Below are positions 6,501-31,221 of a DNA stretch of 32,000 nucleotides, one piece after another. Each line of letters opens with the position of its first letter. Position 1 is the stretch's first letter. The translations under genes and the position numbers were made by a program. Below the pieces are notes generated by a model that was given only the letters and a program-made list of their open reading frames with translations, ran no database searches and was not told the DNA's origin. The DNA is from Trichodesmium erythraeum IMS101. Lineage in GTDB: Bacteria; Cyanobacteriota; Cyanobacteriia; Cyanobacteriales; Microcoleaceae. The stretch covers positions 2,610,001-2,642,000 of the forward strand of contig NC_008312.1 in NCBI RefSeq assembly GCF_000014265.1, written 5' to 3'.

Positions 6501-6547
6501 TTATTCAACAAAACAAAAAAACGAGTATAATAAATACAAAAATAAAA

Positions 6548-11231: not shown

Positions 11232-12833
11232 ATGCGAGTCCTATTAATTTATCCCCTATTTCCCAAATCTTTCTGGTCTTTTGAAAAAATTCTAGAATTG
11301 ATAAATCGCAAAGTAATGCTACCTCCTTTAGGGTTAGTAACAGTAGCAGCTATCTTACCCCAAGAATGGGAATATAAATTAGTTGATAGAAATGTGAGGT
11401 CAGTTACAGAAGCAGAATGGGAATGGGCAGATTTAGTCATACTCTCAGCGATGATTGTCCAAAAAGAAGACTTACATGACCAAATTCGAGAGGCAAAACG
11501 ACGGCATAAATTAGTAGCTTGTGGTGGCCCATATCCCACAGCTTTACCCCAAGAACAACTGGACAGTGGTGTAGATTTTCTGATTTTGGATGAAGGGGAA
11601 ATTACCTTGCCAATGTTTGTGGATGCTATCAAGAATGGGGAAACTAAAGGCATTTTCCGTGCAGATGGGAATAAACCGGACGTGACAACAACTCCTCTTC
11701 CTAGATTCGATTTATTAGAAATGAAATATTATGAATCTATGTCGGTTCAATTTTCCCGTGGTTGTCCGTTCCAATGTGAATTTTGCGATATTATTGTTTT
11801 GTATGGTCGCAAACCTCGTACCAAAACGCCAGCACAATTATTAGCAGAGTTAGATTGTTTATACGATTTAGGATGGCGCGGTTCTCTATTTATGGTGGAT
11901 GACAACTTTATTGGCAACAAGCGTAATGTTAAGTTGTTGCTCAAAGAATTAAAAGTTTGGCAAGCAGAACATCAATATCCATTTAAAATAACTACCGAAG
12001 CTTCCGTTAACTTAGCAGAAGATCCAGAATTAATGCAGTTAATGGTAGATTCTAATCTTAGAGCAGTATTTTTGGGAATAGAAACTCCTGATGAAGATAG
12101 TTTAGAGTTAACCCATAAATATCAAAATAATCGTAACCCTCTCAATGAAGCAGTAGAGAAAATTATTAAATCTGGTATCAGAGTAATGGCAGGGTTTATT
12201 ATCGGTTTCGATGGAGAAAAACCAGGAGCAGGCGATCGCATCGTTAAATTTGTGGAAGAGACGACTATTCCCACTGCCATGTTTAGTATGTTGCAAGTCT
12301 TACCAAATACAGCACTTTGGCATCGTCTCAAAAAGGAAGGTCGGCTTTTAGATAAAGGTGCTAATATTAATCAAGTAACGCTGACAAATTTTATCCCCAC
12401 CAGACCAATAGAAGATATTGCAAGAGAATATGTAGAAGCATTCTGGCAGTTGTACGACCATGAAAAGTTTTTAGATCGAACTTATCGGCATTTTCTTATA
12501 ATGGGAAGTCCCACTGCTAAAAGTATTGCAAAAATGCCAAGTTGGATGGAGTTGCGAGCATTGTTGATTATTTGTTGGCGACAGGGAATAAAACGGAAAA
12601 CTCGTTGGAAGTTTTGGCATCATTTGTGGAGTATCAGAAAACATAATCCTAGTATTTTGCCACGTTATATTAGTACCTGCGCTCATATAGAACATTTTTA
12701 TGAGTATCGCAATATTGTTAGAGAAAATATTGAGGTGCAGTTAGCTGAATATTTAGCTAAGAATAAGCAGTTAAATATAATTAAGGAAAAAGTTAACACT
12801 CAAAATCAAAAAACAACAGAAGAAGTAGCTTAA
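11232..12833 (+). CDS. B12-binding domain-containing radical SAM protein with a DUF4070-type C-terminus
   Basis: The N-terminal region looks like a cobalamin-binding Rossmann fold (MRVLLIYP...LGLVTVAAILP). The radical SAM cluster motif is FSRGCPFQCEFCDI (CxxxCxxC). A long helical C-terminal extension follows. Confidence 0.85.
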   Translation: MRVLLIYPLFPKSFWSFEKILELINRKVMLPPLGLVTVAAILPQEWEYKLVDRNVRSVTEAEWEWADLVILSAMIVQKEDLHDQIREAKRRHKLVACGGPYPTALPQEQLDSGVDFLILDEGEITLPMFVDAIKNGETKGIFRADGNKPDVTTTPLPRFDLLEMKYYESMSVQFSRGCPFQCEFCDIIVLYGRKPRTKTPAQLLAELDCLYDLGWRGSLFMVDDNFIGNKRNVKLLLKELKVWQAEHQYPFKITTEASVNLAEDPELMQLMVDSNLRAVFLGIETPDEDSLELTHKYQNNRNPLNEAVEKIIKSGIRVMAGFIIGFDGEKPGAGDRIVKFVEETTIPTAMFSMLQVLPNTALWHRLKKEGRLLDKGANINQVTLTNFIPTRPIEDIAREYVEAFWQLYDHEKFLDRTYRHFLIMGSPTAKSIAKMPSWMELRALLIICWRQGIKRKTRWKFWHHLWSIRKHNPSILPRYISTCAHIEHFYEYRNIVRENIEVQLAEYLAKNKQLNIIKEKVNTQNQKTTEEVA

Positions 12834-13262: not shown

Positions 13263-14444
13263 TTGCTGAATATGTATCTGAAACATTTACATTTACGACA
13301 GTTTAGAAACTATCGAGACCAGCAAGTTAAATTTGATGGTGCTAAAACAATTTTGCTTGGAGATAATGCTCAAGGCAAATCTAATTTACTAGAGTCAGTT
13401 GAGTTACTTTCTACTCTTAAGTCTCACCGAGCAATTCGCGATCGCGATTTAATTCTAGATAGTAAACAAGCAAGTAAAATTCAAGCATCTTTAGAAAGAC
13501 AACTGGGAAATATTGACTTGGCTCTAACTCTGCGGAGTCAAGGTAAACGCACTGTAGCAGTTAACGGAGAAACTATTAGTCGCCATTTAGATTTTTTAAG
13601 TATTTTGAATGTAGTTCATTTTTCTAGTCTAGATTTAGATTTAGTTAGAGGTGGGCCAGAAGTACGGCGCTATTGGTTAGATAGACTTTTGGTACAACTA
13701 GAACCTGTCTATGCTCACATTCTGCTACAGTATAATCAAGTTCTCCGTCAGCGAAATGCTCTGTTAAAGAAAATTCGCCAACAAAAGATGGCTGCAGAAA
13801 CTACTGGTTCATCACCTTCTATTCTGACTCAGGAGTTGGCCTTGTGGGATGCTCAGTTGGCAACTACTGGGTCTCGAGTGATTCGACGACGACAGCGACT
13901 TTTGCAGAAGTTGGCACCTCTAGCTGGTGAGTGGCATTGTGCTATTAGTGGGAGTATGGAAGTTTTCAAAATGGAATATTTAGCAAATGTAATTGTTGAT
14001 AGTAACGAGTTAATTATTCAGGATAGTTTGGAAGGAGTACGTCAAGCTTTTTTGGAGAAAATTAAAGTCCGGGCGATCGCTGAACAATATCAAGGTACTA
14101 CGGTGGTAGGTCCTCATCGGGATGATGTAATTTTTACTATTAATGATACTCCCGCACGACAATATGGTTCTCAGGGTCAGCAGCGCACTTTGGTGTTAGC
14201 TTTGAAGTTGGCTGAATTACAACTTATTGAAGAAGTGGTGCAGGAACCACCTTTGTTGTTGTTGGATGATGTTTTGGCAGAGTTAGATCTCCATCGCCAA
14301 AATCAGTTGTTAGAAGCAATTAGTAATCGTTTTCAAACTTTGATTACTACTACTCATTTGGGGTGTTTTGATGGTCAGTGGTTACAGGATACTCAAATTC
14401 TTTCGGTCAAGTCGGGAAATATTAGTTCTTTTTTAGATTTTTAG
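13263..14444 (+). CDS. recF: DNA replication and repair protein RecF
   Basis: The sequence reads MYLKHLHLRQFRNY...GDNAQGKSNLLESVELL (Walker A) ... LLLLDDVLAELD (Walker B). The ATG at 13272 is the more likely start than the TTG at 13263. Confidence 0.9.
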   Translation: MLNMYLKHLHLRQFRNYRDQQVKFDGAKTILLGDNAQGKSNLLESVELLSTLKSHRAIRDRDLILDSKQASKIQASLERQLGNIDLALTLRSQGKRTVAVNGETISRHLDFLSILNVVHFSSLDLDLVRGGPEVRRYWLDRLLVQLEPVYAHILLQYNQVLRQRNALLKKIRQQKMAAETTGSSPSILTQELALWDAQLATTGSRVIRRRQRLLQKLAPLAGEWHCAISGSMEVFKMEYLANVIVDSNELIIQDSLEGVRQAFLEKIKVRAIAEQYQGTTVVGPHRDDVIFTINDTPARQYGSQGQQRTLVLALKLAELQLIEEVVQEPPLLLLDDVLAELDLHRQNQLLEAISNRFQTLITTTHLGCFDGQWLQDTQILSVKSGNISSFLDF

Positions 14445-14875: not shown

Positions 14876-15889
14876 ATGGGGAATATTTCAGATTTAGAAG
14901 CAAATATATCACAAATGCAGCAGTTACTAAACGCTGCACAAAATGATATCCAAAAGAAAACTTTTGAAGAAATTATTAATAGATTATCTCAGGAATTAGA
15001 AAAGGAAAAGTCTAAATTAAATTATTCTAAAGTCAAGACTATAGAAGTAGATAAACCTTTAGAAGGAAAGGTGAAGAAAAAAATCATTCAACTGGGAAAA
15101 CATGAAAGTAAAAAAAATCAAAATTTAAAGCTTAAATGTGACTCTAAAATTGAAGAAAAATCACAGCTTGAAACAGAAGAAATATTATACAATAATGAGG
15201 AGGAAAGTCTACCTCCAAAACAGGATTATCTTTTCCACGGTTTAGGGGTTTTGTATGGTAGAATAGTTAAACGATATGAGGATAATGATAATTATTATAA
15301 TGCAATTATTGATGATAAAACTTATCAGTTAATTATTATTAATCCTAGGGTTAGACATTTCATGAAAGTAGATTATAATCCAGAAAAAAATAGATATTTA
15401 ACTGTTTATCCTAATATAGTACATTATCCTCAACCTAGAGGTGGGAGGAAGGAGCCGAAAGTTAGTTTTACTATTATTGCTGCTAATGATTTCCCTACCT
15501 TAGATCTAGAACCTAATGAGTTTAGATTATTTGGATTATGGCAGTTTATCGCTGTGTCAAGATGTCCTGTAATAAGTATTCATAGAAATAGGAAAAATGA
15601 TGGAAGCGATCGCGTATCAGTTATCAAGGAAAGGTTTAAGAATAATGATAAATTACATAAGAATTTAACTAGGGCTAATCATGTTCCTTTATTATGGAGA
15701 GACTCTCCTGTTAAACCTTTTAAGTTTAATCCTAGATTTGATAAGGATAAACAAGGCGATCGCTACTTTTGCAAAATAAAGGCTAAATTTCTGGCATATA
15801 GAGGTGTTTGGGGTTTCCAAGAATTACTTGTAGAACCTACTCTTGATATTCCCAAATTTTATAAGCCTATTAAAATAGCTTTCTCTTAA
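14876..15889 (+). CDS. Hypothetical protein with a Lys/Glu-rich coiled-coil-like N-terminus and an unrecognised C-terminal domain
   Basis: This is a long uninterrupted ORF in an otherwise stop-rich AT-rich region. I recognise no family motif. Confidence 0.55.
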   Translation: MGNISDLEANISQMQQLLNAAQNDIQKKTFEEIINRLSQELEKEKSKLNYSKVKTIEVDKPLEGKVKKKIIQLGKHESKKNQNLKLKCDSKIEEKSQLETEEILYNNEEESLPPKQDYLFHGLGVLYGRIVKRYEDNDNYYNAIIDDKTYQLIIINPRVRHFMKVDYNPEKNRYLTVYPNIVHYPQPRGGRKEPKVSFTIIAANDFPTLDLEPNEFRLFGLWQFIAVSRCPVISIHRNRKNDGSDRVSVIKERFKNNDKLHKNLTRANHVPLLWRDSPVKPFKFNPRFDKDKQGDRYFCKIKAKFLAYRGVWGFQELLVEPTLDIPKFYKPIKIAFS

Positions 15890-16978: not shown

Positions 16979-17117
16979 TTTCAGATCATCTACTTGGGAA
17001 ATATCAGATAATAGCCCGACATATTCATCACCACACTAGAATTTCAATCCCATTTCAACTACTAACAATAATGCCTGTTTAATTTGAGTTTCTTTTTGGG
17101 ATATCTCCAGATTTTTT
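16979..17117 (+). repeat. Right copy of the dispersed repeat; it runs directly into the heptamer array
   Basis: TTCAGATCATCTACTTGGGAAATATCAGATAATAGCCCGACATATT...GGGATATCTCCAGATTTTTTGAGG. Its 3' end resembles the array punctuation ATTTTTTGAGG. Confidence 0.7.
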
Positions 17118-20100
17118 GAGGTTTTAGGTTTGAAGTTTTAAGTCTCAATTTTTTGAGGTTTTAGGTTTGAAGTTTGAAGTTTGAGGTCTCAATTTTTTTA
17201 GGTTTGAAGTTTGAGGTCTCAATTTTTTGAGGTTTGAGGTTTTAGGTTTTAGGTTTGAAGTTTGAGGTCTCATTTTTTTGAGGTTTTAGTTTTAGGTTTG
17301 AAGTTTTACGTCTCAATTTTTTGAGGTGTTAGGTGTTAGGTGTTAGGTTTTAGGTTTTAGGTTTGAAGTTTTAAGTCTCAATTTTTTGAGGTTTTAGGTT
17401 TTAGGCGTTAGGCGTTAGTTTTTAAGTTTGAGGTCTCAATTTTTTGAGGTTTTAGGTTTTAGGTGTTAGTTTTAGGTTTGAAGTTTTACGTCTCAATTTT
17501 TTGAGGTGTTAGTTTTAGGTTTGAAGTTTTAAGTCTCATTTTTTTGAGGTTTTAGGTGTTAGGTGTTAGGTGTTAGGTTTGAAGTTTGAGGTCTCAATTT
17601 TTTGAGGTGTTAGGTTTTAAGTTTTAAGTTTGAGGTCTCAATTTTTTGAGGTTTTAAGTTTTAAGTTTGAGGTCTCAATTTTTTAAGGTTTTACGTTTTA
17701 AGCTTGAGGTCTCAAGGTTTGAGGTTTTAAGTTTTAAGTCTCATTTTTTTGAGGTTTTAGGTTTGAAGTTTGAAGTTTGAGGTCTCATTTTTTTGAGGTT
17801 TTAGGTTTTAGGTTTGAGGTTTGAGGTTTGAAGTTTGAGGTCTCATTTTTTTGAGGTTTTAGTTTTAGGTTTTAAGTTTTACATCTAAATTTTTTGAGGT
17901 TTTAGTTTTAGGTTTGAAGTTTGAGGTCTCAATTTTTTGAGGTTTGAGGTTTGAGGTTTGAGGTTTTAGGTTTGAAGTTTTAAGTCTCAATTTTTTGAGG
18001 TTTGAGGTTTGAAGTTTGAAGTTTTAAGTCTCAATTTTTTGAGGTGTTAGGTTTTAAGTTTGAGGTTTGAGGTCTCAATTTTTTGAGGCTTTAGGTTTGA
18101 AGTTTTAAGTCTCAATTTTTTGAGGTTTTAGTTTTAGGTTTGAAGTTTTAGGTTTGAAGTTTGAGGTCTCATTTTTTTGAGGTGTTAGGTTTTAAGTTTG
18201 AAGTTTGAGGTCTCAATTTTTTGAGGTTTTAGGTTTGAAGTTTGAGGTCTCATTTTTTTGAGGTGTTAGGTTTTAATTTTGAAGTTTTAAGTCTCAATTT
18301 TTTGAGGCTTTAGGTTTGAAGTTTTAAGTCTCAATTTTTTGAGGTTTTAGGTGTTAGGTTTGAGGTTTGAGGTTTGAAGTTTGAGGTCTCATTTTTTTGA
18401 GGTTTTAGTTTTAGGTTTGAAGTTTGAGGTCTCAATTTTTTGAGGTTTTAGTTTTAGGTTTGAAGTTTTAAGTCTCAATTTTTTGAGGTTTTAGGTTTGA
18501 AGTTTGAGGTCTCAATTTTTTGAGGTTTGAGGTTTGAAGTTTGAGGTCTCATTTTTTTGAGGTTTTAGTTTTAGGTTTGAAGTTTTAAGTCTCAATTTTT
18601 TGAGGTTTGAGGTTTGAAGTTTGAAGTTTGAGGTCTCATTTTTTTGAGGTTTGAAGTTTGAAGTTTTAAGTCTCAATTTTTTGAGGCTTTAGGTTTGAAG
18701 TTTTAAGTCTCAATTTTTTGAGGTTTTAGGTGTTAGGTTTGAGGTTTGAGGTTTGAAGTTTGAGGTCTCATTTTTTTGAGGTTTTAGTTTTAGGTTTTAA
18801 GTTTTACATCTCAATTTTTTGAGGTTTTAGTTTTAGGTTTGAAGTTTGAGGTCTCATTTTTTTGAGGTTTGAGGTTTGAGGTTTGAGGTTTTAGGTTTGA
18901 AGTTTTAAGTCTCAATTTTTTGAGGTTTTAGGTTTGAAGTTTGAAGTTTTAAGTCTCAATTTTTTGAGGTGTTAGGTTTGAAGTTTGAGGTTTGAGGTCT
19001 CAATTTTTTGAGGCTTTAGGTTTGAAGTTTTAAGTCTCAATTTTTTCAGGTTTTAGGTGTTAGGTTTGAGGTTTTAGGTTTGAAGTTTGAGGTCTCATTT
19101 TTTTGAGGTTTTAGTTTTAGGTTTGAAGTTTTAAGTCTCAATTTTTTGAGGTGTTAGGTTTGAAGTTTGAGGTTTGAGGTCTCAATTTTTTGAGGTTTTA
19201 GGTTTGAAGTTTTAAGTCTCAATTTTTTCAGGTTTTAGGTGTTAGGTTTGAGGTTTGAGGTTTGAAGTTTGAGGTCTCATTTTTTTGAGGTTTTAGTTTT
19301 AGGTTTGAAGTTTTAAGTCTCAATTTTTTGAGGTTTTAGTTTTAGGTTTGAAGTTTTAAGTCTCAATTTTTTGAGGTTTTAGGTTTGAAGTTTGAGGTCT
19401 CAATTTTTTGAGGTTTTAGTTTTAGGTTTGAAGTTTTAGGTTTGAAGTTTTAAGTCTCAATTTTTTGAGGTCTCATTTTTTTGAGGTTTTAGGTTTGAAG
19501 TTTGAGGTCTCAATTTTTTGAGGTTTTAGTTTTAGGTTTTAAGTTTTACATCTCAATTTTTTGAGGTTTTAGTTTTAGGTTTCAAGTTTGAGGTCTCAAT
19601 TTTTTGAGGTTTTAAGTTTTAAGTTTGAGGTCTCAATTTTTTGAGGTTTTAGGTTTTAAGTTTGAGGTCTCAATTTTTTGATGTTTGAGTTTTAGGTTTG
19701 AAGTTTTAAGTCTCAATTTTTTGAGGTTTTAGGTGTTAGGTTTTAGGTTTTAGGTTTTAAGTTTGAGGTCTCATTTTTTTGAGGTTTTACGTTTTAAGCT
19801 TGAGGTTTTAGGTTTGAAGTTTGAGGTCTCATTTTTTTGAGGTTTTACGTTTTAAGCTTGAGGTCTCAAGGTTTGAGGTTTTAAGTTTTAAGTCTCATTT
19901 TTTTGAGGTTTTAGGTTTGAAGTTTGAAGTTTGAGGTCTCATTTTTTTGAGGTTTGAAGTTTGAAGTTTGAGGTCTCATTTTTTTGAGGTTTTAGTTTTA
20001 GGTTTTAAGTTTTACATCTCAATTTTTTGAGGTTTTAGTTTTAGGTTTGAAGTTTGAGGTCTCAATTTTTTGAGGTTTGAGGTTTGAGGTTTGAGGTTTT

Positions 20101-21480
20101 AGGTTTTAGGTTTGAAGTTTTAAGTCTCAATTTTTTGAGGTTTTAGGTTTGAAGTTTGAAGTTTGAGGTCTCAATTTTTTGAGGCTTTAGGTTTGAAGTT
20201 TTAAGTCTCATTTTTTTGAGGTTTTAGTTTGAGGTTTGAGGTTTTAGGTTTGAAGTTTGAGGTCTCATTTTTTTGAGGTTTTAGTTTGAGGTTTGAAGTT
20301 TGAGGTCTCATTTTTTTGAGGTTTTAGTTTGAGGTTTGAAGTTTGAGGTCTCATTTTTTTGAGGTTTGAGGTTTGAAGTTTGAAGTTTTAAGTCTCAATT
20401 TTTTGAGGTTTGAAGTTTGAAGTTTGAGGTCTCATTTTTTTGAGGTTTTAGTTTGAGGTTTGAGGTTTTAGGTTTGAAGTTTGAGGTCTCATTTTTTTGA
20501 GGTTTTAGGTTTTAGGTGTTAGTTTTAGGTTTGAAGTTTGAGGTCTCATTTTTTTGAGGTTTTAGGTTTGAAGTTTGAAGTTTGAGGTCTCATTTTTTTG
20601 AGGTTTGAAGTTTGAAGTTTGAGGTTTTAGGTTTGAAGTTTGAGGTCTCATTTTTTTGAGGTTTTAGGTTTGAGGTTTGAAGTTTTAAGTCTCATTTTTT
20701 TGAGGTTTTAGGTTTGAAGTTTGAAGTTTGAGGTCTCATTTTTTTGAGGTTTTAGGTTTGAAGTTTGAGGTCTCATTTTTTTGAGGTTTTAGTTTTAGGT
20801 TTGAGGTTTTAGGTTTGAAGTTTGAGGTCTCATTTTTTTGAGGTGTTAGTTTTAGGTGTTAGGTTTTAGGTTTGAAGTTTGAGGTCTCATTTTTTTGAGG
20901 TTTTAGGTTTTAGGTTTTAAGTTTTAAGTCTCATTTTTTTGAGGTTTTAGGTTTGAAGTTTGAAGTTTGAGGTCTCATTTTTTTGAGGTTTGAAGTTTGA
21001 AGTTTGAGGTCTCATTTTTTTGAGGTTTTAGTTTTAGGTTTTAAGTTTGAGGTATCAATTTTTTGAGGTTTTAGTTTTAGGTTTGAAGTTTGAGGTCTCA
21101 ATTTTTTGAGGTTTGAAGTTTGAAGTTTTAAGTCTCAATTTTTTGAGGTTTTACGTTTGAAGTTTGAAGTTTTAAGTCTCAATTTTTTGAGGTTTTACGT
21201 TTTAAGCTTTAAGTTTGAGGTCTCATTTTTTTGAGGTGTTAGTTTTAGGTGTTAGGTTTGAGGTTTTAAGTTTGAGGTCTCAATTTTTTGAGGTTTTAAG
21301 TTTTAAGTTTGAGGTCTCAATTTTTTGAGGTTTTAGGTTTGAAGTTTTAGGTGTTAGTTTTGAAGTTTGAGGTCTCAATTTTTTGAGGTTTTAGGTGTTA
21401 GGTTTTAGGTGTTAGTTTTGAAGTTTGAGGTATCAATTTTTTGAGGTTTTAGGTGTTAGGTTTGAAGTTTGAGGTCTCAG
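17110..21480 (+). repeat. Hierarchical tandem array of 4.37 kb. Runs of 7-nt units (TTTTAGG, TTTGAAG, TTTGAGG, TGTTAGG, TTTTAAG) are punctuated by a conserved element TCTCA(A/T)TTTTTTGAGG
   Basis: My hand count finds about 97 punctuation elements, an average module of about 45 bp with usually 3-7 heptamers. The plus strand is almost C-free outside TCTCA. The supplied track shows no ORF of 60 aa or more in any frame between 17083 and 21487. Confidence 0.97.
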
Positions 21481-21553
21481 GTGTCAAGTGTTATTTTTTA
21501 ATTGTCATATGTTATCTATTGGGCCATGTTTTCTCATTTTCCCAAAAAATTTC

Positions 21554-21572
21554 GACTCGCCAAAGGCGAGAC
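21554..21572 (-). promoter_or_regulatory. GC-rich hairpin followed by a T-run downstream of VR2; either a DGR target-site hairpin/cruciform or an intrinsic terminator
   Basis: The sense strand reads GTCTCGCC-TTT-GGCGAGTC then GAAATTTTTTGGG. The stem is 6 bp perfect, or 8 bp with one mismatch. The copy at 24356-24374 is nearly identical, differing only in the loop. Confidence 0.6.
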
Positions 21573-21604
21573 TAAATAGGGCAAAAGGGCAAAAGGGCAA
21601 AGGG

Positions 21605-22522
21605 CTATTCAGGAGTCCTGGGGGGGAAACTCACAAGACGAAAACCAACAAAGTCGTTGACCGCCTCGACCGAGAAATAGTAGCCGCGGAACGCAGAGCG
21701 ACACCACCAAGGAAAGTCGTACCAGGAGCCGCCCCGTAATCTTTTTGTAGTATATTTTGTAGTATTTTGATTACTTGATACCCATGGACTACCATCATTA
21801 GGTGCGCCCTCGTAATTATCATGCGAGTCATCTTCGCACCATTCCCAGACATTCCCGTGCATATCATATAATCCAAAAAGATTAGCAACTTTGAAGTAAC
21901 CAACTGGAGTGGTTTGTTCTCTATATTCTCCTTTTGGGCCTCTGCCGTAAGAGCCAGACGATTTTTTTTCCCCATCATCCTTTCCACGATAGTTAGCGAG
22001 GTCTGTGGTAATAGTTTCCCCAAAATGAAAAGGCGTAGTTGTTCCTGCACGACAAGCATATTCCCATTGTGCTTCACTGGGTAGCTGATAGTTTCTTTCT
22101 GTCTTCTGACTTAACCGGGCACAAAACTCTTGAGCATCTAGCCAAGAAACTTTCTCAACTGGGCGAGTCCAACGATTATATTTTTCATAGTCATCTTTAA
22201 AATATGAAGGGTCAGGCTTAAGGTCACGTTCAATTTTTTCTGTAGTTTCAACAACAGCTTTCCACTGGCCTTGAGTAATGGGATAACGCCCCATAAAAAA
22301 TTCTGGTACTGTAACTTCATGTTGTGGGCGTTCAGAATGAGTCGAATCTAGCTCATTTTCTGGAGCACCCATAATAAACTTGCCTGCTGGTATCTTAACC
22401 ATAGCCAGTTCAACATTATTGCCCAGGTCTTCGGTATAGTATTCAGCTTGTTCTTTTTTCTTACGAATAGTAATTCTTACCATGGATCTATATATATATG
22501 AAGTCGGGCAACAGTTCAGCAT
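21605..22522 (-). CDS. Stand-alone FGE-sulfatase (SUMF1 / C-type-lectin-fold) domain protein; DGR target 2
   Basis: The sequence reads MVKIPAGKFIMGAPENE...RPQHEVTVPEFFMGRYPITQGQW...VSWLDAQEFCARLS...LPSEAQWEYACRAGTTTPF...GLYDMHGNVWEWCED...LRGGSW...CRSAFR...GFRLV. The likely start is the ATG at 22483 (MVRITIRKKK). The C-terminal 38 aa are encoded by VR2. Confidence 0.88.
   Translation of the reverse strand: MLNCCPTSYIYRSMVRITIRKKKEQAEYYTEDLGNNVELAMVKIPAGKFIMGAPENELDSTHSERPQHEVTVPEFFMGRYPITQGQWKAVVETTEKIERDLKPDPSYFKDDYEKYNRWTRPVEKVSWLDAQEFCARLSQKTERNYQLPSEAQWEYACRAGTTTPFHFGETITTDLANYRGKDDGEKKSSGSYGRGPKGEYREQTTPVGYFKVANLFGLYDMHGNVWEWCEDDSHDNYEGAPNDGSPWVSSNQNTTKYTTKRLRGGSWYDFPWWCRSAFRGYYFSVEAVNDFVGFRLVSFPPRTPE
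21611..21732 (-). other. DGR variable repeat 2 (VR2), including the IMH at its 3' end
   Basis: Hand alignment to TR 22642-22763 finds 18 mismatches within 22651-22763, and all are at TR adenines (T on the plus strand). Confidence 0.9.
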
Positions 22523-23968: not shown

Positions 23969-24310
23969 TTAGGGTTCAGATAAGTTTTTAGTCCAACTAC
24001 CTAAGTCAGATCCTATTCCATTGATCTGTATATTTATATATTTGTAGCGATCGCTGGAAATTAATTCAAAATCTGAGAGTAGGCGAGTTTGGTGCCGAAT
24101 AACATCAAGTTTAATGTTCAGGTTTTGCAAAATCTCTAATTTTTCACTGGTGCTAAAACGGGCACGAATCAGATTTTCCAGCAAATCATAAAGATGATTA
24201 ATTATCCGCGTTCCTAAACCAAGACGATAATTCCTTGGCAAACGATTTAATACTGGGACATACCATTTAATAAAATCATAGGTCTTTTGAATAATTGGTA
24301 ATTCATTCAT
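23969..24310 (-). CDS. avd: Avd-type accessory variability determinant (four-helix-bundle, 23S rRNA IVS protein family)
   Basis: The sequence reads MNELPIIQKTYDFIKWYVPVLNRLPRNYRLGLGTRIINHLYDLLENLIRARF... (113 aa). It sits between the target and the RT. The longer ORF reaching 24394 would run through the conserved VR 3' flank, so I place the start at 24310. Confidence 0.8.
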   Translation of the reverse strand: MNELPIIQKTYDFIKWYVPVLNRLPRNYRLGLGTRIINHLYDLLENLIRARFSTSEKLEILQNLNIKLDVIRHQTRLLSDFELISSDRYKYINIQINGIGSDLGSWTKNLSEP

Positions 24311-24355
24311 ATTTTTATATTTGGGCCATATTTTCTCAATTTCAAAAAAAATTTC

Positions 24356-24374
24356 GACTCGCCAGAGGCGAGAC
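24356..24374 (-). promoter_or_regulatory. GC-rich hairpin followed by a T-run downstream of VR1; either a DGR target-site hairpin/cruciform or an intrinsic terminator
   Basis: The sense strand reads GTCTCGCC-TCT-GGCGAGTC then GAAATTTTTTTT. It lies about 40 nt 3' of the IMH, in the 96-nt gap between the target stop (24407) and the avd start (24310). Confidence 0.6.
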
Positions 24375-24406
24375 TGAAAAGGGCAAAAGGGCAAAAGAGC
24401 AAAGGG

Positions 24407-27040
24407 CTATTCAAGAGTCCTGGGGGGGAAACTCACAAGACGAAAACCAAAATTGATGATGACCGCCCCGTCCGAGCTAAAGTCGTAGCGGTACGCAGAG
24501 CGACACCACCAAGGATAGTTGAGCCAGGAGCCGCCCCGTAATACTTTTGTAGAATATTTTGTAGTATTTTGATTACCTGATAGCCATGGACTACCATCAT
24601 TGGGTGCACCCTCATAATTATCATGCATATCATCTTCGCACCATTCGTAAACATTCCCGTGCATATCGTATAAGCCAAAAGGATTGGCCACTTCAAAACT
24701 ACCAACAGGAGTTGTTTCTTCTCTATACTTGCCTTTTGTCCCTTGGCCATAAGTATAATTGCCATCATAATTGGCCAGGTCTGTAGTAATAGTTTCCCCA
24801 AAATGAAAGGGTGTAGTTGTTCCTGCACGACAAGCATATTCCCATTGAGCTTCACTGGGAAGCCCATAGTTTCTGCCTGTATATTTGGATAGTCTGGCAC
24901 AAAACTCTACTGCATCATACCAAGACACTCTTTCTACAGGTCGATCATTTCCTTTAAAATATGAAGGGTTAGACTTAAGGTCACGTTCAATTTTTGGCAC
25001 ATTATCAACAATGGCTTTCCACTGACCTTGAGTAACAGGGTAGCGACCCATGAGAAAAGCTGAAATATTCACCTGATGTTGAGGACCTTCACGACTTTCT
25101 CGTTCCAATTCATCTTCTGGGGAGCCCATAAGAAACTTTCCTGGGGGAATTTCCACCATTTCAAGTTTAATTCCATTCCCCAAGTCTTCCACAATACCTG
25201 TAACTTGTCGGCGTTGTTTTTTGATAGCCCATCGATATCCAAATAATCTCAATAATTCTGAACGTCTTTTTTCCAACCTTGCTAGATCAAACTCAAAGGT
25301 TACAGTTTCCTGCACTTCAATGAAAGCAACGTCAAAAGTATCAGTTTGAATTTGAGGTTCTGATCTGACTTCTGACTCGGGAGTTTCAAAAATGGGAGGA
25401 ACAGAAACAGGTCGAATTTTCTGGGCAACCTTCTCAGCAAACTCAGCATATTCTCCACCTAAATTTTCCAATACATCAACAGCAACTTGAGCAAAAGGTA
25501 AGACTTGCTCCCGGTCTTCCTCCTCATATTGAGGCAATAAGGTCAACAAAGCTCGAAAACTACGAATAGGTCGGTCAATTTTTTCAGCGATGTAACGAGA
25601 AACAGCATCCAGAACAGCCGTAGTTTCGTTGCGCCCCATTGCCTGGTTCAACTCTTTTCGGACACCAGGAAGAAATTCATAAGTTGGTTGATCATCCTTA
25701 GAGTCAGTTGGAGCAAGCAAACCTCCCATATAAACTTCCGCCACATGAACGGTGGTAGCTTCCTTTAAGAGAGTTTTGCGAATTAAGTTAACCACAGACA
25801 AATTCACCGGAGCCGCCGCCATCATCCCTGCGAGTCGTTGAGCAGTAATAGAAGTTGTTGCCAGAAATTTTCTCACCCTAGTTGTAGGTGAAATTTCTTT
25901 TTTAGGGGTGGGTAGCTCTGGTGGAGAGTCTTCTTGTTTTTGGCAAAATTGCTTTTCAACAAAAGATAAATCAAATAAAAATATAGGTACTCGTGAGTTA
26001 CTAGCTCCGGACACTATCCGACACCAACTTTTCAAAAGTTCAGGTTCAGGCAGAATGACAGGTAAAACCAAAGCATTCTTCCAGTTTATAGGTATCCAGG
26101 GAGGTAAATTTTCCAAAACCAACCGGGGGTTAGGAACTCCTGGTGCAACAGCAGTACCAAAAAATTTACTTCCCACTCCCAGTTGAGTGCTATCCCAAAG
26201 ATATTCAGGGAATAACTGTAATATTGTTGTGGGGTTTTTTTCTGACCAAACTTTTAACCAGTGGTGAACAGTACCATTTTGCCAAATTTTAGAAGTACAG
26301 TCACTGACAAAAATAACTACTCCCCGCTGGTTAGAATGAATTAATTCTCGATGACTATGTTGACGTTGCTTTGGTTTACCGCTGTTATGTCGCCGGACTA
26401 ATTTTAATTTTTTAGTATTTGAACTGAGCAAACTCCAGACTCGGACATTTTTAAATGCTCCCTGAGTTTCCAAGACTTCTTGCATTTCATTCACCGTCTC
26501 TCTCCAAATAAAAGCGGAACTCGACTCTTCTACCACCAGTTCTAAGTCAAGCCAGCGTTCGGGTTCTGGTTTAGTAACGGGCAACCAGATATCCTGCTCG
26601 GCAATAACATTAACAGTTTCTTCTTCGTCTAGTGTTTTTCTGGAGAGAGAGGGAACTTTCCGCATCAGAGGACGCAAAGCACGACCTAACTCCAGTACAT
26701 TCTGGAGAGCTGGAGCCGCGGGTGTTTGGAATGGCAAACCTTTAACTGGAGGTTTTTCGGGGGTTTGGTCTATTGATTCCTCCGTGATCACTGATACTTG
26801 AGGTTCTCTCTCGGTAACAGGTTGAGGATCACTGTCTTCAAAAATTATCGGCAGTTGTTCCGGTTGCTGTTCATATTTTGGCTTCGGCTTTTGTGGAGTC
26901 TTCACCGTACCCATTTGTAAAGCCAACCAAATACTATCAGCAATATTTTCATCGCTGAGTTCCAGACCTTCTAAAATTCCGGTTCGAGCGAGTCGGTCTA
27001 TCAAAAGTTTAATGGTGTGCTCAAAACTGGAACTACTCAT
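24407..27040 (-). CDS. Multidomain sensor protein and DGR target 1. Order: N-terminal helical domain, Pro/Glu-rich linker, vWA-like domain, middle region, C-terminal FGE-sulfatase (C-type-lectin-fold) domain
   Basis: The vWA-like part reads LELVVEESSSAF (an ExSxS MIDAS-like motif) ... GVVIFVSDCTSKIWQNGTVHHWLKVWSEKNPTTILQLFPEYLW. The FGE part reads MVEIPPGKFLMGSPEDE...GPQHQVNISAFLMGRYPVTQGQW...SWYDAVEFCARLS...LPSEAQWEYACRAGTTTPF...GLYDMHGNVYEWCED...LRGGSW...CRSAYR...GFRLV. Its start lies 4 nt after the stop of the upstream gene. Confidence 0.88.
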   Translation of the reverse strand: MSSSSFEHTIKLLIDRLARTGILEGLELSDENIADSIWLALQMGTVKTPQKPKPKYEQQPEQLPIIFEDSDPQPVTEREPQVSVITEESIDQTPEKPPVKGLPFQTPAAPALQNVLELGRALRPLMRKVPSLSRKTLDEEETVNVIAEQDIWLPVTKPEPERWLDLELVVEESSSAFIWRETVNEMQEVLETQGAFKNVRVWSLLSSNTKKLKLVRRHNSGKPKQRQHSHRELIHSNQRGVVIFVSDCTSKIWQNGTVHHWLKVWSEKNPTTILQLFPEYLWDSTQLGVGSKFFGTAVAPGVPNPRLVLENLPPWIPINWKNALVLPVILPEPELLKSWCRIVSGASNSRVPIFLFDLSFVEKQFCQKQEDSPPELPTPKKEISPTTRVRKFLATTSITAQRLAGMMAAAPVNLSVVNLIRKTLLKEATTVHVAEVYMGGLLAPTDSKDDQPTYEFLPGVRKELNQAMGRNETTAVLDAVSRYIAEKIDRPIRSFRALLTLLPQYEEEDREQVLPFAQVAVDVLENLGGEYAEFAEKVAQKIRPVSVPPIFETPESEVRSEPQIQTDTFDVAFIEVQETVTFEFDLARLEKRRSELLRLFGYRWAIKKQRRQVTGIVEDLGNGIKLEMVEIPPGKFLMGSPEDELERESREGPQHQVNISAFLMGRYPVTQGQWKAIVDNVPKIERDLKSNPSYFKGNDRPVERVSWYDAVEFCARLSKYTGRNYGLPSEAQWEYACRAGTTTPFHFGETITTDLANYDGNYTYGQGTKGKYREETTPVGSFEVANPFGLYDMHGNVYEWCEDDMHDNYEGAPNDGSPWLSGNQNTTKYSTKVLRGGSWLNYPWWCRSAYRYDFSSDGAVIINFGFRLVSFPPRTLE
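24413..24534 (-). other. DGR variable repeat 1 (VR1), including the IMH at its 3' end
   Basis: Hand alignment to TR finds 14 mismatches within the segment matching TR 22651-22763, and all are at TR adenines. Confidence 0.9.
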
Positions 27041-27043
27041 ATT

Positions 27044-28096
27044 TTAATCTTCAGCCTCAGCTCTTCCTAAGTCTTGTAAAAGTTGTTGTACTAATTCGTC
27101 GTCAAAAAAACTTTTACCTTCGGTAGCAGGGATACGACCCTTTGTCACCATAAAAATTGCATTCAATAACTGGTCAGTTGCCAGAGTTTTCTCATCCTGG
27201 AGGTCAATAAAATTTTTAATTAGTGTTTGAATTTTTTCTTGTTCAGCAGTATTTTGATTAAAATGAGCAATAACTATTTTGGTCAATTCTTCTTGAGTTG
27301 GAGATTTCATCCTTAAAGGCAAACACCGCCGTAAAAAAGGTGCCGGAAAATCTCTTTCTCCGTTACTAGTCATCACCACCAGAGGAAAAGCGGTGCAAGT
27401 TATCCGCCCATTCTCAATTTCCGCCTCCATCTGAGAACCTGTCTCGGCTTCAGTTTCATCACTGTAAGCAGTACGAACCGTTACCTTGTTTACCTCTTTT
27501 TTTATTCTGACCAACTCTGGAATTTCAAACAACCCCTCTTCGAGAATAGCCAGAAGGTTATTAGGTAAGTCAATATCGCTTTTATCAATTTCATCTATCA
27601 GAAGAACCCGGGGATATTTTGAAGGCAACAAAGCAGTTCCCAAAGGACCGAGAGTTATGTATTTTTCAATTTGTTGTATCTGTTCTCGATATTGTTCTGA
27701 GGAAAAAGTCTGATTATTTAGTCTTTCCTGTTGTTTAACCTCCTGCAACCGACCAATAGCATCATAACTATATAGTCCCTCTTTCAAAATAGTGCGGGTA
27801 GTAACTGGCCAGTAAAGCACTTCTCCCAGTTTTAGTTGTCTAGCCACAGCATAAGCGAGGGAAGACTTACCCGTTCCTGGTTTACCAGTGACAAGTAGAG
27901 GTCGCCTCAAATATAATGCAGCGTTAACCATTTTGACTTCATCAGAACGTGCCTGAAAAGTTTCACCACGTCGCTTCAAGCGACTTTCCCCAGGTCTGTT
28001 TTCTTGACCAAAAGGTCGCCAACTAGGAGGAGGTGGCAAATTTTGAATACCATCATGAGGTTCTGTGTTTTCCTTAAAAATTTCCCAGTTATTCAT
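27044..28096 (-). CDS. MoxR-like AAA+ ATPase
   Basis: Walker A is LLVTGKPGTGKSSLAYAVA and Walker B is RVLLIDEIDKSD, followed by LPNNLLAILEEG. The start overlaps the upstream stop (ATGA at 28093-28096). Confidence 0.88.
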   Translation of the reverse strand: MNNWEIFKENTEPHDGIQNLPPPPSWRPFGQENRPGESRLKRRGETFQARSDEVKMVNAALYLRRPLLVTGKPGTGKSSLAYAVARQLKLGEVLYWPVTTRTILKEGLYSYDAIGRLQEVKQQERLNNQTFSSEQYREQIQQIEKYITLGPLGTALLPSKYPRVLLIDEIDKSDIDLPNNLLAILEEGLFEIPELVRIKKEVNKVTVRTAYSDETEAETGSQMEAEIENGRITCTAFPLVVMTSNGERDFPAPFLRRCLPLRMKSPTQEELTKIVIAHFNQNTAEQEKIQTLIKNFIDLQDEKTLATDQLLNAIFMVTKGRIPATEGKSFFDDELVQQLLQDLGRAEAED

Positions 28097-30024
28097 GACT
28101 CCAACATCCTCAGTTCATTAACAGGTGGAACAATATCAGGATCCTCCCAAAGTAATGATAAGTGATTACCAATATGTCTGTCAATATCTTGTTCCCAAGC
28201 TTCAGAACGTTTTGCTTTTATAGCTTTAGGTAAATTTGACAAAGAGTTACAAGCGTTACAGATATTTTGCAGTTCCTCAGCACAGTCAATATTTTCTGCT
28301 TCTGGCCTCATCCATAGCGCCACAGGAATTCCAGCATAGTAAAAAGCTTCCATAACTGATTCTCGTTTCTCTGGTTGCAGCACTTCTGTTAATCTTACTG
28401 CCGCCACATCGTCAGCAAAAATTTGTCGAAAAAACTTCTTCCTATTACCACTAGTAGCCGAAGGATGAAAAATATCAATTACTCTTGCACTTTGTCTGCT
28501 AGTTAGCGATCGCCACTTTTGGTTAAATTTATTTAATTCAGCATTAGAATTTCCAGACAGCCTAAGGCGTTCTGAAAACCTGAGAGTGATTTCACACTGT
28601 TCTCCCAATAAAGTTTGAAAATACTCAGGTATATTCGGATCACTTATATATTGATCTACCGGCTTAATATCCCGGTCAATTAATTTATAAGGCAAAAATA
28701 TTGCAATTTTCTCTAGATTAAAATCATAACGTTCCGAAACATCAGCCCAAAAGAACTGTAATAATTCAGTCAAATTTTTAGCTTGGTTAAACTCCGAAGT
28801 ATTTTTATTACTAACTATAGTTCCTTTTGCATTCATAAGAACATTTTCTTCATCAATAAAAGAATGGAAACCTTGAGGATTTTCCGGAGTATAATTTTGA
28901 GGATTTTCAATTAGCCATGCCTTCAAAATAAAACCCTTACTCTTTTCAATAGCAGCTACTAATAGATAAGGTTCTGGTTGTTTAATCTGAAAATTTTCCT
29001 GATTTTTCAGAGCTTTCTCTTTTCTTAAAACAGCCTTCAAATCTTCAATATTTTGCGAATATTTTTCCAACCATTCTGTTAATTTCTGGCAAAGCTCAGA
29101 AGGTTTTTTTAAATCCTCAAGATGCAGTAATAAAAAACAGATAAATCTCTCCAGCAAAGAATAATTTTCCTTTGTCCGGTCATCCAAATTTTGAATCATC
29201 TCATTCAAAGATCCAGGGTACTCATCTAGAGATTTCCCAGAACTTAAAGGAATAGAAATTTCTGGCAAAGATAGGTTGTAAGCATAGCGTATTTCTGTGG
29301 TATAATCTTCAAAATAATTTTCCAAAATAGCGATCGCTCCTTGTATCCTACCATCAACGCGACAAACCGTGGCCAAATCCCCAACTTGAAGTATTAGGTC
29401 CGTGGGAATCATAAAAGCCACTTTAGCCTCAGGGCGTTCCTGGTCTGCTTTTACCGCCATACCCACAACACCCTGAAGATTTTTGTCCCAGATAGCAGTA
29501 CCACTAAACCCTGACTCCAAGCGAAGCCCTGTCTGTTTAGTACCCTCAAGTTGGATAAGACCTCGGCCTATTGGTCCCATCAATTTTCCAGTAGCCCACT
29601 CCCCATCGCTCCCTTTTTTTGGGAAACCTAATGCTTCAAACTCATTTTCCTTAAGAGATTGATTTCCTATTTGAATTAAATTAATTGGTTTAGCATCTTC
29701 GGGAAGTAGATCAGAATTTATTAGTTTTAATACTGCAATATCTTGTATATTTTCCTGATCATTTAGAGGTCGCCAAAAAGTCACTTTTGTCTCAAGTTTT
29801 TCACCTATCTTACCTTTCTCAAAAATAGGAAAATTAACCTCAATAATTTCATCAGGAATTTCTTTCTGCCTCATAATTATATGTGCAGTTTTTTTAGGAG
29901 TATCTAAACAATAAGCCACTACATGAGCACAAGTTAAAATATACTCATTAGAAACCAAAAAACCAGAGCCAGCGACACCACCTCCAGATTTAAATATCCT
30001 AACAATAGATAATTCTAAAACCAT
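28093..30024 (-). CDS. Trypsin-like serine protease fused to a VMAP-type (vWA-MoxR-associated) middle and C-terminal region
   Basis: The catalytic triad context is ILTCAHVV (His), DIAVLKL (Asp) and GFSGTAIW (Ser). The C-terminal region (IPVALWMRPE ... HLSLLWEDPDIVPP) matches my recollection of the VMAP-C domain. The domain name is unverified. Confidence 0.8.
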   Translation of the reverse strand: MVLELSIVRIFKSGGGVAGSGFLVSNEYILTCAHVVAYCLDTPKKTAHIIMRQKEIPDEIIEVNFPIFEKGKIGEKLETKVTFWRPLNDQENIQDIAVLKLINSDLLPEDAKPINLIQIGNQSLKENEFEALGFPKKGSDGEWATGKLMGPIGRGLIQLEGTKQTGLRLESGFSGTAIWDKNLQGVVGMAVKADQERPEAKVAFMIPTDLILQVGDLATVCRVDGRIQGAIAILENYFEDYTTEIRYAYNLSLPEISIPLSSGKSLDEYPGSLNEMIQNLDDRTKENYSLLERFICFLLLHLEDLKKPSELCQKLTEWLEKYSQNIEDLKAVLRKEKALKNQENFQIKQPEPYLLVAAIEKSKGFILKAWLIENPQNYTPENPQGFHSFIDEENVLMNAKGTIVSNKNTSEFNQAKNLTELLQFFWADVSERYDFNLEKIAIFLPYKLIDRDIKPVDQYISDPNIPEYFQTLLGEQCEITLRFSERLRLSGNSNAELNKFNQKWRSLTSRQSARVIDIFHPSATSGNRKKFFRQIFADDVAAVRLTEVLQPEKRESVMEAFYYAGIPVALWMRPEAENIDCAEELQNICNACNSLSNLPKAIKAKRSEAWEQDIDRHIGNHLSLLWEDPDIVPPVNELRMLES

Positions 30025-30086
30025 TAAACCTTATCCACTTCCAACTTTTTAAACTCTATAGTTATCCATAGCCAACTTTGCCGTTA

Positions 30087-30437
30087 CTAACCCTCCGTCT
30101 TATTCCATTTCAGAGTAATTTCATAGTTAACCTCCGCGCTACCTGATGCAATAACAGCTCCCAGTTCACCACTCATTTTTATCCCAAACTTCACCTCTAC
30201 AGCATCAGCCGGTTGATTTAAGTCCTGAACCTTTTTGATAATTGCGTTGGCCACCGGCTTAATACTAGAAAGTGCCTTTCCCAGTGTTTGTTTAGCCTGT
30301 TGAGCGACCTCATCCCCAATGCCAATTAACTCCTCATCTTCATCTTCATTGCTACTGACTGGTAGCTTTTCATCCACTTCCACATAGACAAAAGACTCAT
30401 CATCATCATCTAACTGAAACTTAACTAATTTTGTCAC
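30087..30437 (-). CDS. Small Trypco2-like (trypsin co-occurring) protein
   Basis: The sequence reads VTKLVKFQLDDDDESFVYVEVDE...AVEVKFGIKMSGELGAVIASGSAEVNYEITLKW, which fits the family pattern. A GTG at 30437 is preceded by GGAGG (30444-30448) with a 6-nt spacer, so I prefer it over the ATG at 30503 in the ORF track. Confidence 0.7.
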   Translation of the reverse strand: MTKLVKFQLDDDDESFVYVEVDEKLPVSSNEDEDEELIGIGDEVAQQAKQTLGKALSSIKPVANAIIKKVQDLNQPADAVEVKFGIKMSGELGAVIASGSAEVNYEITLKWNKTEG

Positions 30438-30796
30438 TTGTATCCTCCCGTCAGTCAATTTTTTTATATTTCCATATATTCTATAACAACTCGGCAGCCA
30501 CATTGAGATGTCATTTCATTTATTCTTATGTTGGTGTTAAAACTGCCCGTAAAGATAAGAGTAAAAACTAAAAAATATCCTGCCATCCCATTCAAAACAA
30601 ATGGAAAAATTACTGCTATATTCGTAGCTTAATTAACTAGGATATTATAAATATTATCAACCATCAACTAGAAAGAAAAATTAGCCTCAACTGTTTACCC
30701 CTCCCCCATTCCTCCATTCCCCTACTTCCCATCCTGAGAGAGACTAGGGGAACAGAACCTAATCAAAGTGCCAAATTGAAAATTTTTCGAGCTAAA

Positions 30797-30877
30797 TAGT
30801 ATACATCCTTAATATATTAGGGATAGTATACATCCTTAATATATTAGCGATAGTATACATCCTTAATATATTAGCGA
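30797..30877. repeat. 27-bp direct repeat in 3 copies
   Basis: TAGTATACATCCTTAATATATTAG(G/C)GA starts at 30797, 30824 and 30851. The last copy overlaps the stop of ORF 30871..31221. Confidence 0.9.
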
Positions 30878-31221
30878 TCGCATATCATCAAAATTCCAGC
30901 CTCAGAACCTTGAGGAGAAATGAACCTATTACCTTCTAACGTTGTTTCAGCAATAATCTCACCAAGACCAGTTTGTCTTCTAATTAATTGAGAAGCAAAC
31001 CTGCCAATATTACAATCAATTTCCACCACCATATAGACCTGTTTCATTCCATCATCTGCCTCCTGATCGTATTGCTTTAATACTTCTGCCCTCCACAAAT
31101 TGTTGCCCAGGCCTTCAATAGTGTTCATATTTATTAACGTTGTTGCCTTAGTATTATAACCTACAGGCTCCCAATCTAAAATCCCTTGTGTAATAATAAC
31201 ACTAGCCAAAAATTCAAACAT
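30871..31221 (-). CDS. Hypothetical protein (116 aa)
   Basis: This is an uninterrupted ORF with no family motif that I recognise. Confidence 0.45.
   Translation of the reverse strand: MFEFLASVIITQGILDWEPVGYNTKATTLINMNTIEGLGNNLWRAEVLKQYDQEADDGMKQVYMVVEIDCNIGRFASQLIRRQTGLGEIIAETTLEGNRFISPQGSEAGILMICDR

Follow-up and report, generated by a model that had tools for sequence, protein, structure and literature searches.

Ternary conflict systems, predicted to be immune-like and composed of a VMAP protein, a MoxR-type AAA+ ATPase and a protein of the vWA family were defined by comparative genomics, together with the pairing of Trypco1 and Trypco2 proteins with trypsin-like proteases (Kaur, Burroughs, Iyer and Aravind, eLife 2020, PMC7159879). 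About 80% of the cyanobacterial VMAP systems are linked to a diversity-generating retroelement (DGR) and have their vWA component fused to an FGS domain (PMC7159879). A later study proposed the lectin-vWA target as sensor, MoxR as transducer and the N-terminal peptidase of VMAP as output (Doré et al., PNAS 2024, PMC10907252), a direction of signalling opposite to that of Kaur et al. (2020). Doré et al. (2024) covers cyanobacterial loci of clade 5E in which a MoxR protein, a peptidase and Trypco adaptors occur together with a second target that is short and lectin-only, all of which are also present at the locus described here; its detailed cases come from Thiohalocapsa and, like the present work, it is comparative and metagenomic rather than biochemical. 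In Nostoc punctiforme, CHAT, MoxR, VWA and DGR target are co-expressed (mBio 2025, PMC12691664). Here, we describe a locus of this class, Tery_1734 to Tery_1731, in the nitrogen fixer Trichodesmium erythraeum IMS101. It was analysed within a 32,000-nt stretch of the genome (contig NC_008312.1, positions 2,610,001 to 2,642,000), hereafter called the window, and all positions are counted from the first letter of the window.

Two further groups of proteins are relevant for comparison. Pepco proteins, which correspond to Trypco1 and Trypco2, assemble into SDS-resistant beta-barrels of 9-10 subunits (bioRxiv 10.1101/2025.11.14.688446, PMC12642450). The C-terminal tail of Pepco is cut behind a conserved Ile by a neighbouring trypsin-like protease, and toxic pores and cell death follow; Pepco-linked proteases can be fused to sensors that include FGE domains (10.1101/2025.11.14.688446). 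Secondly, in RavA-ViaA, NorQ-NorD and CbbQ-CbbO, a MoxR/AAA_5 ATPase likewise adjoins an alpha/beta protein of the metal-ion-dependent adhesion site (MIDAS) type. These housekeeping MoxR-vWA pairs mature metalloenzymes, whereas the pair in T. erythraeum sits with a protease, a candidate pore former and a hypervariable lectin domain. Publications on the IMS101 DGR (Doulatov et al., 2004; PMC4143802; PMC8867640) treat the same locus; the upstream protease, MoxR and Trypco genes are not discussed there as one system, and the Tery accessions were not found in one supplementary file of Kaur et al. (2020). The locus, the class of system and the sensor hypothesis are already known from the literature. 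The present analysis adds the link to Pepco, a corrected start for Trypco1, neighbourhood statistics and the fast evolution of the protease-VMAP protein.

Architecture and conservation of the operon

The genes Tery_1734 to Tery_1731 constitute a VMAP-type MoxR-vWA ternary conflict system, in which a trypsin-fold VMAP protein is paired with Trypco1 and the vWA-family subunit carries a DGR-diversified end of the FGE/C-type-lectin fold. The gene order on the minus strand, from 30.5 down to 21.6 kb, is Trypco1, protease-VMAP, MoxR, vWA-FGE, avd, reverse transcriptase (RT), template repeat (TR) and second target (Table 1). An original prediction, made from the sequence and its open reading frames, had described four co-directional, tightly spaced genes, and the positions of the frames match it exactly. 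Its junctions are exact as well: the start of the MoxR gene overlaps the stop codon of the protease gene in an ATGA at 28093-28096, 3 nt at 27041-27043 (TAA-AAT-ATG) separate MoxR from the vWA-family gene, and a 62-nt gap at 30025-30086 follows Trypco1, which is encoded directly upstream of the protease on the same strand. Comparative genomics had predicted systems of this kind, as the original prediction also stated: Kaur et al. (2020, PMC7159879) defined both the class and its DGR linkage. The locus shares with those systems the order of VMAP-M1/VMAP-C, MoxR and vWA genes, the N-terminal trypsin domain, the Trypco partner, the FGS C-terminus and the DGR; no architectural difference was seen, although the vWA fold was recovered weakly here. 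None of the operon proteins has a predicted transmembrane segment. A promoter and terminator scan of 21.4-32 kb returned fewer promoter-like sites than shuffled sequences and no convincing internal terminator, and is therefore uninformative on operon structure. Rfam and tRNA scans were empty.

Table 1. Features of the Trichodesmium erythraeum IMS101 locus, with positions in the 32-kb window.
Feature	Position	Strand	Size	Basis or remark
Upstream leader/promoter region of operon	30440-30878	minus		
Trypco1 open reading frame (Tery_1734)	30503-30087	minus	138 aa	
Trypsin-VMAP protease (Tery_1733)	30024-28093	minus	643 aa	
Trypsin domain	about 29380-30024	minus		Pfam Trypsin_2
VMAP-M1	about 28954-29328	minus		Pfam
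VMAP-C	about 28138-28746	minus		Pfam
MoxR-like AAA+ ATPase (Tery_1732)	28096-27044	minus	350 aa	
vWA-family/FGE protein, DGR target (Tery_1731)	27040-24407	minus	877 aa	
Alpha/beta (vWA-like) core of Tery_1731	25961-26554	minus	aa about 163-360	
Helical domain of Tery_1731		minus	to about aa 540	
Variable repeat 1 (VR1)	24413-24534	minus		15/15 mismatches to TR at TR adenines
avd	24394-23969	minus		NCBIfam and Pfam matches
DGR RT, TAA-interrupted	23944-22880	minus	354 codons	frame translation
TR	22763-22642	minus	122 nt	repeat search and alignment
Second DGR target, lectin fold only	22522-21605	minus	305 aa	FGE-sulfatase 1.1e-51
Variable repeat 2 (VR2), in the 305-aa gene	21611-21732	minus		19/19 mismatches to TR at TR adenines

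The linkage of these genes is conserved among cyanobacteria. One genome per GTDB species was scanned with a profile of the N-domain of the vWA-family protein, which yielded 175 relatives, and 80 loci were analysed; neighbours were scored by phmmer with the window proteins against six-frame open reading frames. All 80 loci are cyanobacterial, except for a few oddly binned metagenome-assembled genomes (MAGs). Of 74 loci with enough flank, 72 have MoxR directly upstream of the vWA-family gene, and MoxR in turn is preceded by a VMAP-M/C gene in 54/59, so that the order VMAP-MoxR-vWA, whose conservation had been put forward as a check, is kept. An FGE domain is fused to the vWA-family protein in 49 of 67 loci, while other C-termini include GUN4 or Ppx-GppA, and a short, stand-alone FGE gene follows the vWA-family/FGE gene in 37 of 56. 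The VMAP protein carries a trypsin domain in 16/59 loci, and an RT is found within 6 kb in 16/56. Trypco1 accompanies trypsin-VMAP in every locus with enough flank (15/15), never occurs without trypsin and is independent of the type of vWA C-terminus. The domain matches given below and this strongly conserved linkage show that the architecture had been read rightly as a protease, a MoxR protein and a vWA-family protein with a DGR-diversified lectin C-terminus.

At the upstream border, a stretch of the leader region at about 30467-30609 is conserved among Trichodesmium lineages. In related contigs, a "gene" of 70 aa had been called upstream of Trypco1; it was rejected as an open reading frame, with tblastn matching the leader region in two frames. 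Tery_1735 (30871-31221), which encodes a Trichodesmium-specific hypothetical protein of 116 aa, was considered as a fifth component and dismissed as well. It is no conserved partner of the operon: it was not found within 3 kb upstream of Trypco1 in one related locus (L001), and in another (MAG_R01; L083, 500-5555) a 962-aa HemolysinCabind/CBM_2/GH18 gene sits between its homologue and Trypco1. A near-perfect tandem repeat of 27 nt x 3.1 (CGCTAATATATTAAGGATGTATACTAT; 30796-30878, tandem repeat finder) precedes Trypco1 by about 300-400 nt and could be a regulatory or terminator element. Its start lies at a HIP1-like GCGATCGC, and the stop codon of Tery_1735 overlaps this motif.

Protease, ATPase and vWA-family protein

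Tery_1733 matches Trypsin_2 (3.9e-11), VMAP-M1 (PF19963; 2.8e-19, 70.3 bits, cut-off 25) and VMAP-C (PF20028; 7.9e-27, 95.1 bits, cut-off 27), all above the Pfam cut-offs. The residues H34, D95 and S174 are invariant across 32 VMAP protease homologues with identities down to 26%, and the originally predicted trypsin-fold protease with a VMAP-like C-terminal region is thus borne out. Taken alone, the N-terminal protease module shares 45-48% identity with the modules found fused to nSTAND1/WD40, TPR, GUN4, TIR and FGE proteins, and its fusion to such varied sensors indicates that it acts as a portable output module.

The adjacent Tery_1732 scores above cut-off for both Pfam AAA (32.8 bits) and AAA_5 (29.6 bits; AAA_5 cut-off 22), and its matches to bpMoxR and to NCBIfam MadB and GvpN are all sub-threshold. 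Across 16 orthologues, G71-K77-S79 of Walker A, D168-E169 of Walker B and, among the sensor and arginine residues, T243/N245, R248 and R256/R257 are invariant. Comparison of its profile with E. coli RavA by hhalign gave a probability of 71% (E 3.8e-5), and single-sequence and profile searches against the PDB gave generic AAA+ P-loop matches only, midasin being the best. These matches and motifs uphold the predicted AAA+ ATPase, for which membership of the MoxR clade itself is moderately supported.

From the N- to the C-terminus, Tery_1731 consists of conserved helices, a P/E/Q-rich linker, an alpha/beta core, a helical domain, a beta-rich extension and the FGE/lectin fold. NCBIfam SAV_2336_NTERM (NF041121) matches aa 30-489 (6.5e-146; 487 bits against a cut-off of 200 bits). 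FGE-sulfatase matches aa 627-869 (nt 24434-25162; 1e-54), and with VR1 at the 3' end of the gene the domain does end in the variable repeat, as had been noticed. A low-confidence, poorly conserved linker at aa about 541-578 parts the vWA/helical body from the lectin domain. The full-length AlphaFold model has a pLDDT of 67, and its best PDB matches, through the C-terminal domain, are PvdO, the Treponema DGR variable protein TvpA and FGEs. As the FGE domain swamped the structure search, a second model was built of aa 150-560 (pLDDT 82, pTM 0.79). Its beta-alpha-beta core places E171-x-S173-x-S175 after strand 1 and D247 after strand 4.

Trypco1 as a candidate substrate of the protease

The small protein encoded by Tery_1734 matches Pfam Trypco1 (PF19493; 3.9e-25, 88.7 bits) and NCBIfam CU044_2847 (1.7e-23). 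It had originally been called Trypco2-like; the Trypco family is correct, and the member is Trypco1 instead. The true start is probably the GTG at 30437, giving 116 aa, because a Shine-Dalgarno sequence (GGGAGGA, 30449-30443) lies ahead of it, the ATG farther upstream has no counterpart in a Trichodesmium MAG and 116 aa is the called length of many orthologues. The C-terminal YE[IV]T[LM]KW of Trypco1 is a conserved motif, with I in 12 and V in 4 of 16 sequences, and in these sequences the tails reach 0-8 residues past the W of the motif.

Pepco modules resemble Tery_1734/1733 in that a protein of about 116-117 aa is encoded directly upstream of a trypsin-like protease and has a conserved Ile/Val near its C-terminus. 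The protease characterised with Pepco forms the N-domain of a STAND sensor (Avs4), whereas Tery_1733 is a VMAP protein with MoxR/vWA partners. Because Pepco proteins of the Trypco family are protease-activated beta-barrel pores, Trypco1 is likely, by analogy, to be both the substrate of the protease and the killing effector. The "proteolytic effector" of the original prediction is thus indeed a protease, but probably an activator of a pore former rather than the terminal effector.

Diversification of the putative receptor

A DGR in T. erythraeum IMS101 was reportedly predicted by Doulatov and colleagues in 2004. The retroelement produces an abundant TR non-coding RNA of 265 nt and has twelve VR targets (Pfreundt et al., 2014, PMC4143802); in the published accounts of this DGR, proximal targets lie on either side of avd and the RT. 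In the window, all 34 differences of VR1 and VR2 from the TR fall on TR adenines; the TR is rich in Asn codons (AAY) and has 29 adenines in its 116-nt core. Avd is matched over its full length by NCBIfam DivGenRetAVD (NF033474; 2.5e-35, 120.9 bits, cut-off 80 bits) and also by Pfam bAvd. A probable start of avd is the ATG at about 24313, which gives 113 aa, and a wild orthologue is called at 113 aa. The second target measures 292 aa in wild orthologues compared to 305 aa in the window.

Column entropy, computed over 18 orthologues of the 877-aa protein from natural Trichodesmium, amounts to 1.07 bits in aa 836-864 compared to 0.13 elsewhere, and the columns with at least 5 residue types all fall within aa 829-863. 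This hypervariability of the VR indicates that the receptor is diversified in nature. Hypervariable DGR targets have likewise been described in Tara metagenomes (Paul and Eren, 2022, PMC8867640).

About 100 nt past the stop codons of both VR genes (21505-21604 and 24307-24406) are conserved and belong to a repeat family of 300 nt with an overall identity of 87%. An imperfect 13-bp hairpin (21549-21577) is present in the VR2 copy, and none was detected in the VR1 copy at the same settings. These downstream segments may be related to the target-side elements needed for DGR homing. Starting about 130 nt past the 3' end of the VR2 gene, a 4.3-kb array (17111-21475) holds about 600 degenerate heptamers (TTTTAGG/TTTGAGG) with higher-order units of 37 and 44 nt, has a GC skew of +0.6 to +0.7 and contains no open reading frame of at least 100 aa. 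It was considered as a part of the DGR and rejected, no tandem repeats having been found at the equivalent place in wild scaffold L081.

A proposed route from receptor to pore

The following mechanism is proposed. All four operon proteins would be soluble and cytoplasmic, and the hypervariable lectin surface would bind an invader-derived ligand. The signal would be relayed via the vWA-like/helical body to a MoxR hexamer, of which the ATP-driven remodelling would free or activate the VMAP-tethered protease. The protease would then act on Trypco1 oligomers that are already assembled and trim their short C-terminal tail, probably after the Ile/Val of YE(I/V)TLKW, which here is Ile129 in the 138-aa numbering and Ile107 from the GTG start; the clipped oligomers would form membrane pores that kill the infected cell, which in a filamentous, colonial organism would amount to abortive infection. 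In wild populations the DGR would rewrite the sensor surface, and in IMS101 the receptor would be frozen by a nonsense mutation in the RT. Unlike the original prediction, we infer that Trypco1, not the protease, is the terminal effector. That the lectin senses and that MoxR/vWA licenses the protease is plausible and was already published by Doré et al. (2024); to the whole chain, from lectin sensor through vWA/MoxR relay and protease to Trypco1 pore, we give an even chance. The neighbouring defence-like genes provide circumstantial support for a defence role.

Several results weigh against this reading. The vWA-like body is the weakest of the four assignments. Foldseek matches of the aa 150-560 model are weak (E 0.03-0.1, TM 0.26-0.40, probability 0.82-0.95), and they are enriched for vWA/MIDAS proteins: CMG2, integrin betaI, the MDN1 MIDAS domain and NorD of NorQ-NorD. 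Pfam searches at E<=10 with ten members of the N-domain family returned no vWA family, the N-domain profile found nothing among PDB sequences at E<=10, and hhalign of that profile with E. coli ViaA gave no match. Compared with the known pairs, Tery_1731 has no detectable sequence similarity to ViaA, and its putative MIDAS motif begins with Glu, not Asp. The motifs on which the original prediction had based a vWA-like domain do exist, with both E171-x-S173-x-S175 and VVIFVSD247C kept in 35 homologues; the vWA assignment itself comes mainly from the literature and these weak fold matches, and the N-domain fold is consistent with, though no demonstration of, a divergent vWA domain. When all eight proteins were run through PADLOC v2, which has no model for this system, no system-level match was obtained; there were weak generic matches of the protease to the LmuA and RT-protease models and of the ATPase to IetA via its P-loop, and the vWA-FGE protein, Trypco1 and Avd were without any match. 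The analogy with Pepco meets a difference in the tail. Beyond the conserved Ile/Val, Trypco1 has 9 conserved residues with invariant T, K and W, whereas the tail of the characterised Streptomyces Pepco is described as 20 residues long, charged and Pro-rich.

The rates of evolution are a further point against it, as the protease-VMAP gene, and not the lectin VR alone, evolves fast. Pairwise Nei-Gojobori estimates over six Trichodesmium-lineage loci (window, L001, L081, L083, L084 and L085) gave ratios of nonsynonymous to synonymous divergence (dN/dS) of 0.68 for the trypsin domain, 0.59 for VMAP-M and 0.72 for VMAP-C (dN up to 0.21), compared to 0.15 for Trypco1, 0.27 for MoxR and 0.29 for the vWA-family N-domain. 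Purifying selection acts on the latter three, and within Trichodesmium the protease-VMAP protein evolves several-fold faster than its partners and is the fastest non-DGR component. An arms race on VMAP, as a sensor or as the target of a phage inhibitor, could be the cause, as could recombination or relaxed constraint, among which pairwise estimates from six sequences cannot decide. The pattern agrees with models that have VMAP itself in contact with the invader. In the model of Kaur and Aravind (PMC7159879; summarised in PMC10907252), the variable middle and C-terminal region of VMAP senses, the MoxR-vWA pair sets a threshold and the peptidase cuts the vWA protein, which frees a lectin effector that neutralises or contains the invader. 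The excess in dN/dS (0.59-0.72 versus 0.15-0.29, with a VMAP-C dN of 0.21) speaks for this model, and the linker at aa about 541-578 would offer a possible cleavage site. However, the strict tie of Trypco1 to trypsin, whatever the vWA C-terminus, is left unexplained, and the experimental finding that Pepco is both protease substrate and toxin (10.1101/2025.11.14.688446) is not accounted for. The same protease module is moreover fused to sensor-type repeats and directly to FGE, which places FGE in the position of a sensor, and a lectin domain that only binds would make a weak effector. We consider the model of Kaur and Aravind unlikely for this locus. It is doubtful, too, that the locus combines two tiers of recognition, a DGR-rewritable lectin receptor and a germline-encoded, fast-evolving protease-VMAP surface (a second sensor or the target of a phage inhibitor), which would converge via MoxR on trimming preformed Trypco1 barrels by their last 9 residues, so that membrane pores open.

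A further point against the proposed route is the state of the RT in IMS101. Codon 39 of its single 354-codon frame, in which YVDD is present, is TAA (23830-23828, minus strand), as already reported (Pfreundt et al., 2014, PMC4143802), so that the RT is a pseudogene and the DGR is disabled. At this codon the wild scaffold L081, which is 93.5% identical at the nucleotide level and is the Hawaiian metagenome scaffold in which Pfreundt et al. (2014) found an intact DGR copy, has TAC (Tyr). The original prediction had placed avd and RT correctly on the same strand behind the operon but overlooked the stop codon, and the "programmable" module that it announced has nothing programmable at present. 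The whole operon might then be a decaying relic in IMS101, possibly silent or non-functional, with intact frames that reflect recent inactivation. Besides the nonsense codon, the unchanged VRs on resequencing of cultures (PMC4143802), an apparently fragmented STAND-TPR gene and a transposase nearby, and the richness of the genome in insertion sequence elements (PMC7517822) would agree with decay. Yet the four operon genes are intact with their catalytic residues kept, they are near-identical to wild orthologues under purifying selection, and a frozen receptor can still work, as loss of the RT halts diversification and not signalling. A relic is therefore very improbable in our view.

Another alternative is a role outside antiviral immunity. 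The system may be a tunable intracellular switch for signalling or programmed cell death (stress, nutrients, bloom collapse) or serve kin or self-recognition, with the DGR tuning a regulatory receptor. Cyanobacterial DGR targets have been read as tuning of regulatory pathways (Vallota-Eastman et al., 2020, PMC7517822), about 12-18 targets of the IMS101 DGR are known, fused to kinases, caspases and other domains (PMC4143802, PMC8867640), caspase-linked programmed cell death is described in Trichodesmium (PMC4143802), and all proteins of the operon appear cytoplasmic, with no transmembrane segments. Such a role seems quite unlikely, however, as the protease-Pepco module acts in phage-triggered cell death (10.1101/2025.11.14.688446), there are defence-like genes in the neighbourhood, and a DGR-scale hypervariability of about 10^15 variants suits open-ended recognition of non-self better than that of a fixed endogenous signal.

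Other features of the window

Several other genes in the window resemble defence or conflict genes. Two tandem genes on the minus strand (7044-8561 and 8665-10149) encode Ser/Thr kinase-GUN4 proteins that resemble the PD-T4-6 defence kinases, and the first of them matches the PADLOC PD-T4-6 model PDLC04062 over its full length (2.5e-148). Also on the minus strand, at 1093-4906, fragments of an alpha/beta-hydrolase (4511-4906) and of AAA_16 (3761-4414) stand in a row with a TPR_10/NPHP3-TPR protein of 799 aa (1093-3492), which has a 126-nt x 13 tandem repeat inside; the three frames look like one hydrolase-STAND-TPR conflict gene split by frameshifts, and a DDE_Tnp_4 transposase (290-1039) adjoins them. 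On the plus strand, an SMC_N/AAA_15/AAA_21 ATPase (13263-14444) matches PADLOC mad3 (2.5e-32), has a GajA/PtuA/AriA-like N-terminus and is followed by a 337-aa protein without a family match (14876-15889), with which it may form a two-gene defence system. A tandem repeat of 253 nt x 5.7 with 97% matches (5068-6517) is apparently non-coding, and a B12-binding radical SAM protein with DUF4070 (11232-12833, plus strand) is apparently unrelated to the operon.

Biological significance

The Pepco result offers a concrete candidate substrate for the protease of this locus. If the two-tier reading were true, it would describe a complete pathway from receptor to pore in a MoxR-vWA conflict system. The T. 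erythraeum locus is a clean and compact test case from an ecologically important nitrogen fixer, with natural alleles in ocean metagenomes. For an antibody-like and hypervariable receptor that acts inside the cell and is coupled to cell death in multicellular bacteria, the MoxR/vWA/protease systems linked to a DGR rank among the best candidates.

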